IMG/VR virus record: IMGVR_UViG_2703718853_000004
Reading direction: 5' to 3' (one strand)
DNA from: a virus
Taxonomy: Duplodnaviria > Heunggongvirae > Uroviricota > Caudoviricetes
Length of the DNA stretch: 42,889 bases
How positions within the stretch are numbered: the first letter of the stretch is position 1; each line of letters opens with the position of its first letter. This document shows, piece after piece, positions 32,420-37,050 of the stretch. The position numbers and the translations under genes are program-made. Under the pieces are notes generated by a model that saw nothing but the letters and a program-made list of their open reading frames with translations, was not told the DNA's origin and did not search any database.

Positions 32420-33264
32420 GACCGGTTCTCCCGATAGCTGTCCCAGGTAAACGAAATCGTGCAGCCGCCGCCGTCGTTCATGCGGTCGATGACGCGCTCG
32501 CCGATAAACTGCGTCAGCTCATCCTTCGGCAGGTTGCTGATCAGGATCGTCGGCTTCAGGCGCTCGTAGCGGGTGTTGATGATTTCAAACATGATCATCT
32601 TCTCGGCTTCGCTACCAAACTGAATGCCTACCTCGTCGATAATCAGCAGGTCCGGCTTGGTGAAGAAGCGGATCACATCTTCCTCGGAGCGGGTCGCCGT
32701 CTTTGACCAGGTGGATTTAAACTCTCGGGCGATTTTCAGCGCAGTGGTGAACACGACCGGGCTCTGGTGCTCTGCGATAACGCTTTTCGCAATTGCATAG
32801 GCCAGGTGGTTTTTCCCCGTGCCGGGTTTTCCGCACATAACCAGGCCGCCACCGTTCTTCCGGCGATCTGGCCAGCGGCTGGCGTACGCTCGGCAGACTT
32901 TCAGCGCCCGCGCCGCTTCTTCGCTTACCGGATGGTAGTTATCCAGAGTGCAGGCTTCGAACCGGGCCGGGACCTTGAGCTCCAGCATCAGGCGCTCAAC
33001 ATTCGCAGTGCGATTTCTGTCATCCGATTTGGCCTTCTCGTTTCGCAGGAAAACGAGCTCATCTTTCAGGCATCCAGGGCAGCTTGTCGGCGCCCCTGGC
33101 AGACGGACAAGGCCAGTTGATACGCGCTGGCGTTGCTCATAGTCGCCGTGCTTTTCGCAGACCACTAACTGCTTAATGACTTCAGTGTTTGGGATGTCCA
33201 GTGCTGGCTGTGAAAGCTCCTGCAGCTGTTTTTCAACCAGGGTGATTCGTTCGTCCAGGTTCAT
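32416..33264 (-). CDS. DnaC-like replicative helicase loader (AAA+ ATPase)
   Basis: Walker A CGKPGTGKNHLAYAIA and Walker B LLIIDEVG; follows the O-like initiator gene. Confidence 0.75.
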   Translation of the reverse strand: MNLDERITLVEKQLQELSQPALDIPNTEVIKQLVVCEKHGDYEQRQRVSTGLVRLPGAPTSCPGCLKDELVFLRNEKAKSDDRNRTANVERLMLELKVPARFEACTLDNYHPVSEEAARALKVCRAYASRWPDRRKNGGGLVMCGKPGTGKNHLAYAIAKSVIAEHQSPVVFTTALKIAREFKSTWSKTATRSEEDVIRFFTKPDLLIIDEVGIQFGSEAEKMIMFEIINTRYERLKPTILISNLPKDELTQFIGERVIDRMNDGGGCTISFTWDSYRENRS

Positions 33265-34121
33265 TGTTGATCCCTCATCCAGTCCGGAAGTTCGGTTTTT
33301 CCGTAGTCTTTGTCAGCGAATCGCTCGGTGACACGTGACTCCTGTCGGCGTTGCGGTCTGGCGCCTTTTGGCTCAAATAGGCCCTGCCAGCCATTCGCGA
33401 TGCTCTGGTTAATAATTTCTTCAGGGGAGTAACCGTTCAGCCGGCAGCGGTCCAGCAGGTTGATAGCCTGGGTGACCGTCTGCTGAGACTTGATCGGCTT
33501 TTTCAGGTCGCGACGATATGCCACCCATGACGACCAGATTTCTGCAGAAAGCCAGTCAGGCAACTGAACAGCTAACGCATCGAACGAAACCGCCCGGGGG
33601 GATTTAGGGGGGTTATTAATATTGTCTTTATTGTCTTTTGTATGTTTGTCTTTTGTGTTTACCTGATTCGGGTAATAGGCGTTACCTGATTCGGGTAAAC
33701 TTTTCTTACCTGATTCGGGTAATGTTACCTTTTTCAGGTAAGGTCTCTTTTCTGTACCTTTTACGGGTAAAGATGACCATTCGCTGACCGTTTTATTAAT
33801 CCCGATAACACGACCGGTTTGAGTTAATATCCCCCGCTTAACCAGGACGCTTTTTGCAGCTGAGCACTTATGCGGGAGAATGCCGGTCAGCTCCGAAAGC
33901 TGCTCGTTACTGACCCAGTCAGATTTCTTGTTGAAGCCGTATGTTTTGCGCATGACAGCCATGAACACCAAAAGCTGATGCTGCGACAAACCCGCACGCA
34001 TGACAGCTTCAAGGAGCTCATTGGCGATGCGCGTAAACCCATCGTCGAGATCTGCCACGCGCAGCTCCTGTAGTGCCACGACAGGCACAGGGAAATTGAT
34101 TACCTCGGCAGTATTTGCCAT
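33261..34121 (-). CDS. Replication initiator (lambda O-like replisome organizer)
   Basis: 286 aa; contains the iteron array within its coding sequence; directly upstream of the helicase loader. Confidence 0.65.
   Translation of the reverse strand: MANTAEVINFPVPVVALQELRVADLDDGFTRIANELLEAVMRAGLSQHQLLVFMAVMRKTYGFNKKSDWVSNEQLSELTGILPHKCSAAKSVLVKRGILTQTGRVIGINKTVSEWSSLPVKGTEKRPYLKKVTLPESGKKSLPESGNAYYPNQVNTKDKHTKDNKDNINNPPKSPRAVSFDALAVQLPDWLSAEIWSSWVAYRRDLKKPIKSQQTVTQAINLLDRCRLNGYSPEEIINQSIANGWQGLFEPKGARPQRRQESRVTERFADKDYGKTELPDWMRDQQ
33659..33770. repeat. Iteron array (candidate replication origin) inside the O-like gene
   Basis: TTACCTGATTCGGGTAA at 33659, 33682 and 33706, degenerate copies at 33725 and 33755; AT-rich TTGTCTTTT repeats just before. 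Confidence 0.6.
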
Positions 34122-34206: not shown

Positions 34207-34428
34207 TCATGCTTCAAAGTCACCTTTCTCTCCCGGCCTGTTAGAAATCAGGATGGCCAGCAGTAGCGACATGTTCGGCAGCAGACTTTCCCGCCAGCGA
34301 CTCACCGTCGACTTATTCACTCCGGCCACTTTGGCGATATTCGTGGTTCCCAGTTCAGCTATCTGGCTGTGTAACCAGCTTTCTATCCTGCGAGCCTCCA
34401 CTTTGTTGCGTGTCGTTGAACTCTCCAT
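34207..34428 (-). CDS. cII: Transcriptional activator CII
   Basis: RRIESWLHSQIAELGTTNIAKVAGVNKSTVSRWRESLLPNMSLLLAIL parallels lambda CII; located between the cro-like and O-like genes. Confidence 0.7.
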   Translation of the reverse strand: MESSTTRNKVEARRIESWLHSQIAELGTTNIAKVAGVNKSTVSRWRESLLPNMSLLLAILISNRPGEKGDFEA

Positions 34429-34467: not shown

Positions 34468-34698
<231 letters not shown>

Positions 34699-34711: not shown

Positions 34712-34785
34712 ATATACATATTGTATTCTTTTCTTGCAAGGTAAATATACAAATTGTGACTCGAAGAAAGATATACAACTTGTAT
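34712..34785. promoter_or_regulatory. OR-like operator region with three TATACA-NN-TTGTAT palindromes between the cro-like gene and cI
   Basis: ATATACAtaTTGTAT (34712..34726), ATATACAaaTTGT (34745..34757), ATATACAacTTGTAT (34771..34785). Confidence 0.55.
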
Positions 34786-34794
34786 CATTTGGGT

Positions 34795-35454
34795 ATGAGC
34801 ATGAAATGGTATGACCTAGCAAAGTCCCTCATGAAAACGAAGGGCATAAACCAGGAAGAGCTGGCAGAGCATCTCGGGATCACCAAAGGTGCCGTTAGTC
34901 ATTGGCTAAACGCAAGGAGAGAGCCCAGCCTGGAGGACATAGCTAAAATTCTTCGCTTCCTCGGCAAGAATAATTTTTCTGTGGGTGCTGGCGGCATGAT
35001 AATTGATGAAAACATCAAGGGTGATGTTGAGTACGTTGGGCCCTATAAGCGCGGCAACGAATATCCAGTGCTTAGTAGTGTTCAGGCTGGATCGTGGCGA
35101 GAGGCTATAGAACCTTATTCCATCAAAGATGTTGATCTGTGGCTTGAGTCGAATGCACATATCCAAGGGGAAGCGTTCTGGCTGCTTGTTGAAGGCGATT
35201 CCATGACGTCACCAGTCGGGCTAAGCATTCCAGAGGGTACCTACGTTTTGTTTGATACCGGCCGAGAGCCAGTAAATGGCAGCCTTGTGATCGCAAAGCT
35301 ATCCGAATCAAACGAAGCGACATTCAAAAAGCTGATTATTGATGGGGGCCAAAAGTACCTGAAGGGCTTAAACCCTCAATGGCCATTGGTTCCCATCAAC
35401 GGAAACTGTCGAATCATTGGTGTGGCCGTAGAAACTAAGTTAAGGCTTGTGTGA
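34795..35454 (+). CDS. cI: CI-type prophage repressor (N-terminal HTH, C-terminal LexA-like S24 peptidase domain)
   Basis: HTH (EELAEHLGITKGAVSHWLN); C-terminal LVEGDSMTSP and a downstream Lys consistent with a Ser-Lys autocleavage dyad. Start at ATG 34795 (or 34801), not the ORF-track GTG that overlaps the third operator. Confidence 0.75.
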   Translation: MSMKWYDLAKSLMKTKGINQEELAEHLGITKGAVSHWLNARREPSLEDIAKILRFLGKNNFSVGAGGMIIDENIKGDVEYVGPYKRGNEYPVLSSVQAGSWREAIEPYSIKDVDLWLESNAHIQGEAFWLLVEGDSMTSPVGLSIPEGTYVLFDTGREPVNGSLVIAKLSESNEATFKKLIIDGGQKYLKGLNPQWPLVPINGNCRIIGVAVETKLRLV

Positions 35455-35462
35455 TCGGCAGC

Positions 35463-35491
35463 ATGCCGCAGACGTACAGGAAGCATGGGTA
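35463..35491. repeat. 29-bp direct repeat, left copy
   Basis: ATGCCGCAGACGTACAGGAAGCATGGGTA matches 35665..35693 with one mismatch. Confidence 0.5.
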
Positions 35492-35514
35492 AAGCTTTAG
35501 CACGCAGAGGAAGC

Positions 35515-35634
35515 ATGTCTGATCTGATTATCCCAATACTCATTACTTTACTGATTATCGGACTGGTTGGGATAGTGCTCAGGCTGGATAAGATTTTCTT
35601 CAAGCGAAGGGATGAGCGGGATGACTTTGAGTGA
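35515..35634 (+). CDS. Small hydrophobic peptide (39 aa; 49 aa if started at 35485)
   Basis: MSDLIIPILITLLIIGLVGIVLRLDKIFFKRRDERDDFE: one TM helix plus charged tail; AGGAAG SD before the ATG; flanked by the 29-bp direct repeats. Confidence 0.35.
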   Translation: MSDLIIPILITLLIIGLVGIVLRLDKIFFKRRDERDDFE

Positions 35635-35664: not shown

Positions 35665-35693
35665 AATGCCGAAGACGTACAGGAAGCATGGGT
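35665..35693. repeat. 29-bp direct repeat, right copy
   Basis: ATGCCGAAGACGTACAGGAAGCATGGGTA. Confidence 0.5.
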
Positions 35694-35853
35694 AGCCATC
35701 AGCCTATCGAAGCGATTAAGTAATTTTTATGACCACTATCTTTCAAAGGTTGATGCTTAGTGTATGATGAGTTTAAAGCCGTATATGCTTAATTACGTGT
35801 CAGCATATTTTTGTAAGATCCGGTCAGATTGTTCCTTTTTTGAGCAACTCTGG

Positions 35854-35882
35854 TTGAAAACCTCTTTGAGGGATCCTATATA
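35854..35882 (+). promoter_or_regulatory. Sigma70-like promoter for the immunity-region moron
   Basis: TTGAAA, 17-nt spacer, TATATA, followed by AAGGAG SD and a GTG start. Confidence 0.45.
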
Positions 35883-35895
35883 AGGAGTATAGTTA

Positions 35896-36261
35896 GTGAC
35901 CCGAAACCCTGGAGATGAATCCGTTGAAGTTTTGCATAAAAGAGCAGTAGCGCGGTTTAACTCTCTTACTTATGCAATCATCGGTGAAATCAGTTCTATG
36001 CTCAGCAAGGCCAAATTATTGCCAATTCCTGAGCTACAGTTGAACAACCCTACATTCGAAGAGGTTGTTTCACAGTTAAGACTTTATCGCGCCCTATCCG
36101 AAAAAGTCGCTGAGTTGTTAAAAATTGATAGGAAAGATGAACTAGCTGAGCTTGACGCGTACATCGAGCTCGCAGATGACTTGGCTCAAGCCATTGTAGC
36201 TGACAATCCTGAAGGGTTGTGCGCCGCCATAGCTGCTTTGGATGAGAAGCCATACGTATAA
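35896..36261 (+). CDS. Hypothetical helical protein (121 aa), moron gene 1
   Basis: GTG start 8 nt after AAGGAG; AT-rich; no recognisable motif. Confidence 0.45.
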   Translation: MTRNPGDESVEVLHKRAVARFNSLTYAIIGEISSMLSKAKLLPIPELQLNNPTFEEVVSQLRLYRALSEKVAELLKIDRKDELAELDAYIELADDLAQAIVADNPEGLCAAIAALDEKPYV

Positions 36262-36278
36262 CAAACGAGGAGCACACG

Positions 36279-36407
36279 ATGGAAAACCGTTACGACTTTG
36301 AGACCGTATTCGCACTGCTGAACGAAATGGAAGCATGCCTGAATAACGTTCGCCGACTGAATGCCCAGTTGGATGAAAGTCTGCGAGCTATTCCACTGGC
36401 AGCTTAA
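36279..36407 (+). CDS. Hypothetical small protein (42 aa), moron gene 2
   Basis: MENRYDFETVFALLNEMEACLNNVRRLNAQLDESLRAIPLAA; GAGGAG SD 6 nt upstream; followed by a terminator. Confidence 0.35.
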   Translation: MENRYDFETVFALLNEMEACLNNVRRLNAQLDESLRAIPLAA

Positions 36408-36438
36408 CATATCAGCAGCTATTAGAAATTCATCCAGA

Positions 36439-36467
36439 CCCGGCGCGGCCCCCGCGCCGGGTTTTTA
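36439..36467 (+). terminator. Rho-independent terminator ending the immunity-region moron
   Basis: CCCGGCGCGG-ccc-CCGCGCCGGG perfect GC stem followed by TTTTT. Confidence 0.7.
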
Positions 36468-36626: not shown

Positions 36627-36830
36627 CTACTCTTCCCTCAGCATCAGCACGTCCAGTGCCAGCTCCACAGTCAGTTCTACCCTGTTTCCCTGCCACAGCA
36701 CCTGAATCATCTCTATCAGCGCCTCTCTTGATGGCTCGCGCTTCTCAACCAGCAGTTGCATAACCGCTATCCCGATAACCTGCGCTATCTGTGGGTGCAT
36801 CTCTGCGAAAAACTCATCCTCATTCGACAT
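36627..36830 (-). CDS. Hypothetical protein (67 aa) transcribed divergently from the OL-like region
   Basis: AGAGGG SD 9 nt upstream; plausible composition; convergent with the cI operon. Confidence 0.4.
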   Translation of the reverse strand: MSNEDEFFAEMHPQIAQVIGIAVMQLLVEKREPSREALIEMIQVLWQGNRVELTVELALDVLMLREE

Positions 36831-36928: not shown

Positions 36929-36970
36929 GTATACGTATTGTATTGCAAGTAATGAATACGTTTTGTATAT
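36929..36970. promoter_or_regulatory. OL-like operator region
   Basis: GTATACGTATTGTAT and AATACGTTTTGTATAT resemble the OR half-site consensus; AT-rich intergenic region before the early-left operon. Confidence 0.45.
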
Positions 36971-37050
36971 TCACCTCATCCAAACAACACCGGCAACGCC
37001 GGGGTGAAGTCAAAACGTCCCGTTAGCCGCGATAAGGCAAAGGTGAAGAG

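Follow-up and report, generated by a model that had tools for sequence, protein, structure and literature searches.

In phage lambda, the slot immediately behind the lysogeny repressor gene is occupied by rexA and rexB, which are defence genes. The bstA gene of the BTP1-like prophages is likewise reported to sit in this repressor-downstream slot, which is known to hold defence genes (PMC8585504). Such slots are still being mined for immunity genes, and here we describe one that holds an uncharacterised cassette recurring across families of mobile elements. The cassette consists of two small genes at positions 35854-36466 (plus strand) of a 42,889-nucleotide stretch of viral DNA (IMG/VR record IMGVR_UViG_2703718853_000004), hereafter the window, which is a Klebsiella lambdoid prophage with a map inverted relative to that of lambda. 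At the level of sequence the cassette is a moron, with its own terminator, a putative promoter, a presence/absence polymorphism and a composition unlike that of its flanks. Our preferred reading, to which we give a probability of about 0.4, is that it is a mobile accessory moron expressed in the lysogen and acting as a proteolysis-gated, toxin-antitoxin-like switch for exclusion or stabilisation.

The cassette is co-oriented with the repressor gene cI (S24/helix-turn-helix; 34756-35454, plus) and lies between cI with the small membrane open reading frame (ORF) behind it and the left operator with its leftward promoter (OL/PL). Gene 1 (35896-36261, plus) starts with GTG and encodes 121 aa, with the Shine-Dalgarno sequence (SD) AAGGAG at 35882-35887 (plus), 8 nt 5' of the start. 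Gene 2 (36279-36407, plus) starts with ATG, encodes 42 aa and has its own SD, GAGGAG (36267-36272, plus), 6 nt upstream. The unit closes with an intrinsic terminator at 36436-36466 (plus), composed of a 13-bp stem with a 10-bp GC core, a 3-nt loop and TTTTT; the hairpin (36436-36464) and its T run fold at -26 kcal/mol (z -5.1), and 0 of 200 shuffled sequences folded as well. The GC content is 0.38-0.46 across 35700-36300 vs about 0.50-0.57 in neighbouring genes. Putative cI operators, ATAC(A/G)TATTGTAT in form, are located in the interval from cro to cI at 34713-34725 (the right operator, OR) and, as ATAC(A/G)TATTGTAT and AATACGTTTTGTATA, at 36930-36942 and 36955-36969 (OL), where they adjoin a PL-like promoter (36943-36971). 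These cI-type operators putatively mark the limits of the immunity region and stand on both sides of the cassette, which therefore falls inside that region, in the position equivalent to rexAB. An initial annotation of this DNA had claimed an AT-rich region in the rexAB-equivalent position, a GTG-started 121-aa ORF and a 42-aa ORF each behind an SD, and a strong GC-stem terminator, and all of these claims were borne out, with the cassette placed between cI and OL/PL (about 36930-36971).

The likeness to lambda rexA-rexB covers the slot between cI and OL/PL, the co-orientation with cI, the number of genes and the presumed expression in the lysogen. It does not extend to sequence or fold, as judged from Pfam, NCBIfam, PADLOC and generic fold matches, and while RexB is a polytopic membrane protein and RexA has 279 aa, both cassette proteins are small, soluble and helical. 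In lambda an internal promoter drives rexB alone, and the conserved promoter of the cassette would also favour the second gene; unlike rexAB, however, the cassette has its own putative promoter 5' of both genes and moves between unrelated elements. With bstA it shares the repressor-downstream locus and the range of carriers, namely lambdoid and P22-like prophages of Enterobacterales including Klebsiella, but BstA works as one protein of much greater size, which has a DNA-binding domain and is paired with a cognate anti-BstA DNA element, and PADLOC revealed no similarity between it and the cassette proteins. The cassette also resembles the Hendrix-type moron (HK97 gp15, lambda bor and lom), likewise a presumably autonomous transcription unit of lower GC content than its flanks that lies between conserved modules and is present in some close relatives and absent from others. 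The cassette differs from these morons in having two genes, in its fixed preference for the repressor-downstream position across 16 immunity types, and in a 5' regulatory block that is better conserved than the coding sequence.

The organization of the cassette is retained wherever it was found. An ORF of 41-44 aa lies within about 10-25 nt 3' of a ~120-aa gene in 38/38 loci (window included), an ORF of 38-49 aa follows gene 1 in every locus examined, distant relatives included, and a GC hairpin, in most cases with a T run, stands 3' of gene 2 in nearly all loci with downstream sequence. Relatives with only 20-34% identity, from Pseudomonas-like, P2-like and other elements, keep the same layout, and the distance between the two genes, 17 nt in the window, is 10-50 nt or a 4-nt overlap across all relatives. 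An S24 repressor gene, reading in the same direction, precedes the cassette by 200-440 nt at 31 of the 38 loci. These repressors comprise 23 distinct sequences in 16 clusters at 70% identity, and at least three different repressor alleles have near-identical cassettes behind them, in some cases with the small membrane ORF and in others without it. The other sites, all of them classic slots for lysogen-expressed or variable cargo, are after the primase gene of a Serratia P4-like satellite (L007), next to the S24 repressor in Vibrio PM2-like (corticovirus-type) prophages, between the C repressor gene and int of a P2-like prophage, beside tail-fibre genes at prophage ends (L008, L018, L020, L048) and beside an Arc/antirepressor module. 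These genome comparisons show that the cassette moves as a whole unit between prophages of lambdoid, P2-like and PM2-like type and a P4-like satellite, and that the position immediately behind the lysogeny repressor gene is its favoured site.

The gene 1 family is rare and patchy, as is usual for accessory genes. The 121-aa protein has 46 homologue clusters among 5.8 billion proteins, a family profile search returned 68 representatives among 1.84 billion proteins, and the family is present in 6 of 185,579 species genomes. In 50,697 deposited phage genomes the window protein matches Proteus phage Pm34 only, to which a distant-relative query adds Pseudomonas phage Meadow; most lambdoid phages, close relatives included, lack the cassette. 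It might be argued that no functional unit exists here and that ORFs and signals arose by chance in an AT-rich spacer, and promoter-like sites in the window alone are indeed no commoner than in shuffled sequence (5 vs 5.2). Conservation of the two-ORF plus terminator layout across more than 40 loci, some of whose proteins are only about 20-34% identical, pN well below pS (nonsynonymous and synonymous differences per site), a confidently modelled large protein (AlphaFold2) and PHROG family matches for both proteins refute this explanation, and the probability we leave to it is negligible.

The cassette is present or absent against a nearly constant background. Klebsiella phages 2 LV-2017 and Kp4856-1 lack it with flanks 97% identical to those of the window, and in 2 LV-2017 the small membrane ORF runs directly into the terminator. 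A repeat search placed the left mosaic junction at 35666-35694 (plus), the second copy of a 29-nt direct repeat whose copies (35463-35491 and 35666-35694) are 28/29 identical, lie 203 nt apart and bracket the small membrane ORF. The repeat corresponds to the 3' end of another repressor allele (...MPQTYRKHG, then stop), as found in 2 LV-2017 and in Klebsiella phage vB_Kpn_RAH1 (L001; hereafter RAH1), and the cassette-specific sequence starts just after the copy that ends at 35694. From its sequence, the repeat looks like a recombination linker for swapping modules behind different repressors. The initial annotation had called the locus an insulated, self-contained moron, a view that is strongly supported by the recurrence of the unit behind 16 repressor types and in unrelated elements, and which also fits its absence from the sister phage 2 LV-2017.

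RAH1 itself carries a related arrangement at the same site in its genome (2890-3520). Its promoter/SD/GTG shell is nearly identical to that of the window over about 45 nt and its terminator is similar, while the cargo differs and consists of a 125-aa protein and a 40-aa protein ending in KAA. Comparison of the large window protein with the RAH1 cargo by hhalign was not significant (probability 0.4% and 2.4%); the predicted order of helices and the motifs (N/D)P(S/T)xEE and NPE(x)LC coincide between the two large proteins. The RAH1 cargo is either a very remote allele or the product of a cargo exchange at a conserved promoter.

To describe the 5' signals, 13 distinct Enterobacterales cassettes were anchored at the start codon and the mean column conservation was calculated. 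The first promoter-like element, P1 (35854-35882, plus), has TTGAAA (35854-35859), a 17-nt spacer and TATATA (35877-35882), with a predicted start near 35889. The TTGAAA-17-TATATA element claimed initially is thus present, but its description as near-consensus was overstated, since 9/12 consensus positions are matched; the promoter scan did not list P1 because the -10 hexamer lacks the T at position 6. The case for P1 as a promoter is accordingly made by conservation across loci and not by this single sequence. Conservation is 0.94 for both the -35 and the -10 hexamer, 0.95 for the block -13 to -1, which holds the SD, and 0.90 for +1 to +11, vs 0.64 for the 17-nt spacer and 0.56 for the flank further upstream. 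The P1 spacing is fixed at 17 nt, and the element is also present in non-lambdoid contexts (L007, L018). Conserved hexamers at a fixed spacing over a variable spacer would be the pattern expected of a sigma-70 promoter, and as the pattern is kept in satellite and tail-fibre contexts, the promoter appears to travel with the cassette. In cassettes of more remote relationship, separate sigma-70-like promoters are placed differently, at 34-59 nt 5' of the start.

The conservation extends beyond the hexamers. The core from -20 to +11 is 77-97% identical between cassettes whose coding identity is 54-71% and whose synonymous sites are saturated. The P1 hexamers and the next 30 nt are far better kept than either the spacer or the synonymous positions. 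The extra conservation of AGGAGTATAGTTAGTGACCCAAAA is more than the SD and start codon would account for, and may come from a second, overlapping promoter, from the first transcribed nucleotides or from the binding site of a regulator. A second promoter-like element, P2 (TTGAGG-16-TATAGT; 35866-35893, plus), was listed by the promoter scan with a start within codons 2-3 of gene 1, and is predicted to yield an mRNA encoding just the small protein; versions of it (TTGATC-16-TATAGT/TATGAT/TATAAT) appear in 10/13 cassettes of the clade, RAH1 included. A TTGA-N7/8-TTGA direct repeat, with TTGA motifs one helical turn apart, spans the -35 region. A CII-type activator site was considered for this repeat and rejected; since some elements that bear the cassette have no CII, we take the repeat for two overlapping -35 hexamers. 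Immediately behind the P1 -10 hexamer, which ends at 35882, comes the SD of gene 1 (counted from 35883 to 35887), and with a start near 35889 the P1 transcript would begin after that SD; therefore P1 and the SD cannot share one mRNA.

An AT hairpin with a T-tract (35783-35813) had been noted initially ahead of the cassette, and a role for it as a terminator insulating the cassette from cI was examined and rejected. The hairpin is not significant against shuffled sequences (z -0.11), and its stem is broken without compensation in the sister loci L012, L014 and L015. As the hairpin is not a terminator, cI transcripts probably read into the cassette. Expression in the lysogen is a reasonable inference from the co-orientation with cI, the lack of a significant terminator between the two and the conserved, operator-free promoter. 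The layout is best explained by co-transcription of the two genes from their own promoter, ending at the terminator. Transcription in the lysogen would thus come from two sources, namely read-through from the repressor-maintenance promoter (PRM) past cI into the cassette, and the cassette's own promoter, which has no repressor operator. Read-through transcripts from PRM would hold the SD of gene 1 and give both proteins, while transcripts from the cassette's own promoter would start after this SD, so that gene 1 would be poorly translated and mainly the small protein would be made.

The gene 1 protein matches PHROG 13858 (function unknown) over its full length (E-value 1.2e-38). Its AlphaFold2 model (predicted local distance difference test score, pLDDT, 89.9) contains helices at 10-41, 44-48, 54-74, 80-101 and 105-116, showing an acidic bundle of helices that ends in a flexible and conserved C-terminal tail. 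The isoelectric point (pI) is 4.6 in the window and 4.4-5.1 in the family, with a net charge of -5 to -10. In the family alignment the tail is invariant (...LCAAIAALDEKPY(I/V)) and generalises in distant relatives to L-D-x-x-[PS]-[FY]-[ILV]-COOH; the other invariant residues are mostly hydrophobic, with the exceptions of E31, Y89, K118 and Y120. The start codon alternates between GTG and ATG (L016/L017). Mean hydropathy is -0.03 and -0.14 for the two cassette proteins, and a membrane segment is unlikely in either, as judged by sequence inspection and hydropathy and not by a dedicated predictor. In gene 1, pN is 0.15-0.34 vs saturated pS, in gene 2 pN is also below pS, and across both ORFs pN is 0.09-0.46 vs a largely saturated pS of 0.45-0.98, which shows, at the level of codon comparison, purifying selection on both.

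The gene 2 protein matches PHROG 12503 (function unknown; E-value 2.5e-5), and its homologues reach an E-value of 3.9e-26. It is predicted to form a single amphipathic helix with a tail; the window protein has the motif YDFxxVFxLLxEMEAC and the C-terminus ...IPLAA, and the family motif is [FY]D[FY]xxVxxLLxxMEAC. All ~22 distinct small proteins, including those of the most distant relatives and the RAH1 version, end in Ala-Ala, mostly as KAA and in the window as LAA, and the Ala codons vary. A terminal Ala-Ala-COO- is the dominant determinant for recognition of ssrA-like degrons by ClpXP (PMC7652416), and Ala-Ala is found in 91% of the top 100 E. coli C-terminal degrons (PMC10862746). The Ala-Ala end of the small proteins is therefore a candidate ClpX degron.

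The same Ala-Ala end could serve the phage in another way, with the cassette regulating lysogeny or induction as a ClpXP decoy or competitor, or as an adaptor or anti-adaptor; it would thereby tune the turnover of repressor cleavage fragments or of further ClpXP substrates, and with it prophage induction. Lambda CIII competes for FtsH in a manner comparable to the decoy, and LexA and other repressors that cleave themselves leave N-terminal fragments with -A or -AA ends, which ClpXP clears. Besides the universal Ala-Ala end, the linkage to repressor genes speaks for such a role, since an S24 repressor precedes the cassette in 31/38 loci and the S24 repressor of PM2-like Vibrio prophages and the P2-like C repressor adjoin it elsewhere. 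Yet the cassette is also found in repressor-free contexts (L007, L008, L018, L020, L048 and Pseudomonas phage Meadow), the C repressor of P2 does not belong to the self-cleaving S24 proteins, and most lambdoid phages, even close relatives, do without the cassette, which is therefore not part of the core switch. We consider this regulatory role unlikely.

In the exclusion or stabilisation switch that we prefer, the two cassette proteins would form a complex, and ClpXP would keep the small protein short-lived through its ssrA-like Ala-Ala end, so that the pair would act as a proteolysis-gated, toxin-antitoxin-like switch. When the supply of the labile partner falls, for instance upon shutoff of host transcription by a phage or upon loss of the element, the stable bundle protein would be freed to bind, by means of its C-terminal tail, some conserved cellular or phage target. 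Superinfecting phages would then be excluded or their infections aborted, or the element would be stabilised. A benefit of this kind is suggested because the cassette is rare and patchy over unrelated elements, undergoes allelic replacement and occupies slots that elsewhere hold rexAB and bstA. That the cassettes form an undescribed class of prophage and satellite two-protein switches, in which a helix with an Ala-Ala end destroyed by ClpXP gates a bundle effector with a docking peptide, is a more specific proposal, which we hold to be possible but doubtful.

Several observations weigh against the proposed switch. A terminal Ala-Ala is necessary but not sufficient alone for degradation (PMC10862746), and the usual antepenultimate residue in the family is Lys or Gln, not the optimal Leu (optimum: PMC10862746). 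A 42-aa partner without a DNA-binding domain is atypical for type II antitoxins. The P1 -10 hexamer TATATA matches TATAAT at 4/6 positions, without the T at position 6, and a P1 transcript would have a leader of ~7 nt before the GTG, which is normally translated poorly. Finally, no catalytic site is apparent in the family alignment among the mostly hydrophobic invariant residues of the gene 1 protein; with no catalytic constellation, this protein most likely acts by binding a partner.

Type II and type VI toxin-antitoxin systems (HigBA-type gene order; SocAB with ClpXP) offer a further comparison. Shared features are two small adjacent or overlapping genes with the larger first, a small partner with a candidate ClpXP degron and carriage on mobile elements, whereas the cassette has no family homology to these systems (Pfam, NCBIfam), its small protein has no DNA-binding domain and its large protein no catalytic motif. 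A plain addiction or stabilisation toxin-antitoxin pair, which penalises loss of the element and has no anti-phage role, would account for the paired genes, the labile-looking small partner and the carriage on many mobile elements. Integrated prophages need little post-segregational killing, however, and a cassette match was found on none of 72,556 plasmids, the elements on which addiction modules are commonest, which makes this explanation decidedly unlikely.

An opposite role is conceivable as well, in which the cassette is an anti-defence or host-takeover module expressed from a constitutive promoter at DNA entry, the bundle inhibiting a host defence or hub protein by way of its conserved C-terminal tail and the small protein serving as chaperone or timer. 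A promoter without a repressor operator suits this idea, as do the acidic large protein (pI 4.4-5.1, net charge -5 to -10), which lacks an enzymatic motif and has a conserved terminal peptide typical of docking motifs, and the unrelated-looking RAH1 cargo in the same promoter shell, which suggests rapid diversification. But the charge is modest compared with known DNA mimics, the preferred site is a lysogenic operon (repressor-downstream, PL-upstream) and not the early lytic operons usual for anti-defence genes, and the P4-like satellite and prophage ends are sites known for defence cargo. We regard an anti-defence function as quite unlikely. An Ocr-type DNA mimic in particular was considered unlikely, as a net charge of only -5 to -10 was found.

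Database searches gave few further leads. Pfam, NCBIfam and PADLOC returned nothing meaningful for both proteins, their distant relatives and the RAH1 variants, and in PADLOC-DB v2.0 no defence family matched either protein or the RAH1 variants at an E-value up to 1. The initial statement that neither protein has a recognisable motif holds for these libraries but not for PHROG, where families 13858 and 12503 match. Profile and structure searches with the 121-aa protein gave no informative fold match, and a sequence-profile search of the PDB returned compositional matches to designed coiled coils only. No RNA family was recognised in Rfam, the sole match being PAGEV at 16.7 bits vs a gathering score of 61. 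The named homologues are all called "hypothetical protein" except for one outlier cluster with the Joint Genome Institute (JGI) label "prephenate dehydrogenase", and the possibility raised in the initial annotation, that homologues would prove to be ordinary phage regulators, did not materialise. A HEPN-type toxin was rejected on the basis of the alignment, which contains no conserved Rx4-6H and no conserved Arg or His; a stray AbiU2 HEPN match occurred in 1/35 distant members (E-value 0.003). A relationship to TomB-Hha (YmoB-YmoA) was also rejected, as the fold match is non-specific, being no better than that to dozens of unrelated or designed bundles, and no Pfam YbaJ or HHA match appeared at an E-value up to 1; Hha has 72 aa and does not end in Ala-Ala, unlike the small cassette protein.

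What is already known, then, is the kind of element, an immunity-region moron that is possibly toxin-antitoxin-like. The protein pair, its invariant termini and the overlap of promoter and SD are not described in the libraries or literature searched; in the literature search, no paper describing the gene 1-gene 2 pair was found. Should the more specific proposal of an undescribed class of switches be true, the cassette would represent a new way of aborting infection or excluding phages, one that senses when a phage interferes with host transcription or proteolysis, with an unusual dual-transcript design in which its own promoter skips the SD of the effector gene. If it excludes phages in Klebsiella pneumoniae lysogens, it bears on the host range of therapeutic phages, and a role in tuning ClpXP or prophage induction would make it a small-protein regulator of a new kind. 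The cassette is about 610 bp long and easy to clone, the invariant Ala-Ala of the small protein and the invariant C-terminal tail of the large one are biochemical handles, and a promoter overlapping a ribosome-binding site is a regulatory puzzle of its own.

The surrounding prophage genes follow a lambdoid order, with the genes for replication protein O (33261-34121), cII (34207-34428) and cro (34468-34686) on the minus strand. Directly 3' of cI, the small single-pass membrane ORF MSDLIIPILITLLIIGLVGIVLRLDKIFFKRRDERDDFE (35485-35634, plus; start likelier at 35515) is ~97% conserved in several Klebsiella phages and corresponds to the ORF10 annotation in RAH1. A family match was not found for it; it adds another candidate for expression in the lysogen and may encode an exclusion protein. 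Between the cassette terminator and OL/PL lies a 67-aa ORF of PHROG 3946 (function unknown; 36627-36830, minus), which is convergent with the cassette. It is kept in RAH1 and L043, persists as a 14-codon remnant in phage 2 LV-2017 and has no counterpart at that position in lambda. Just 3' of the PL-like promoter, a short GC hairpin, CCGGCAACGCCGG (36990-37002), is kept in RAH1 and 2 LV-2017 and may be a boxB/nutL-like element; no obvious N-like ORF was identified after PL in the window, where gam-like and recT genes follow from 37555 onward.

Two of the other carriers also have distinctive surroundings. In Vibrio cholerae and V. lentus (L004/L010, 6001-6530), the gene pair stands at the edge of PM2-like prophages that encode an S24 repressor, a PrtN-like activator, a gpA-type replication protein and a P2-type double jelly-roll capsid protein, and gene calling gave no integrase between the pair and the adjacent host gene fur. 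In L048-L050 (3369-12315), a distant member of the pair lies between very large ORFs (826, 663 and >687 aa), for which no Pfam or PADLOC match was obtained, and the gene for a collagen-repeat protein of 821 aa. This block is inserted at chromosomal sites that differ among genomes and is probably a prophage tail-fibre region.

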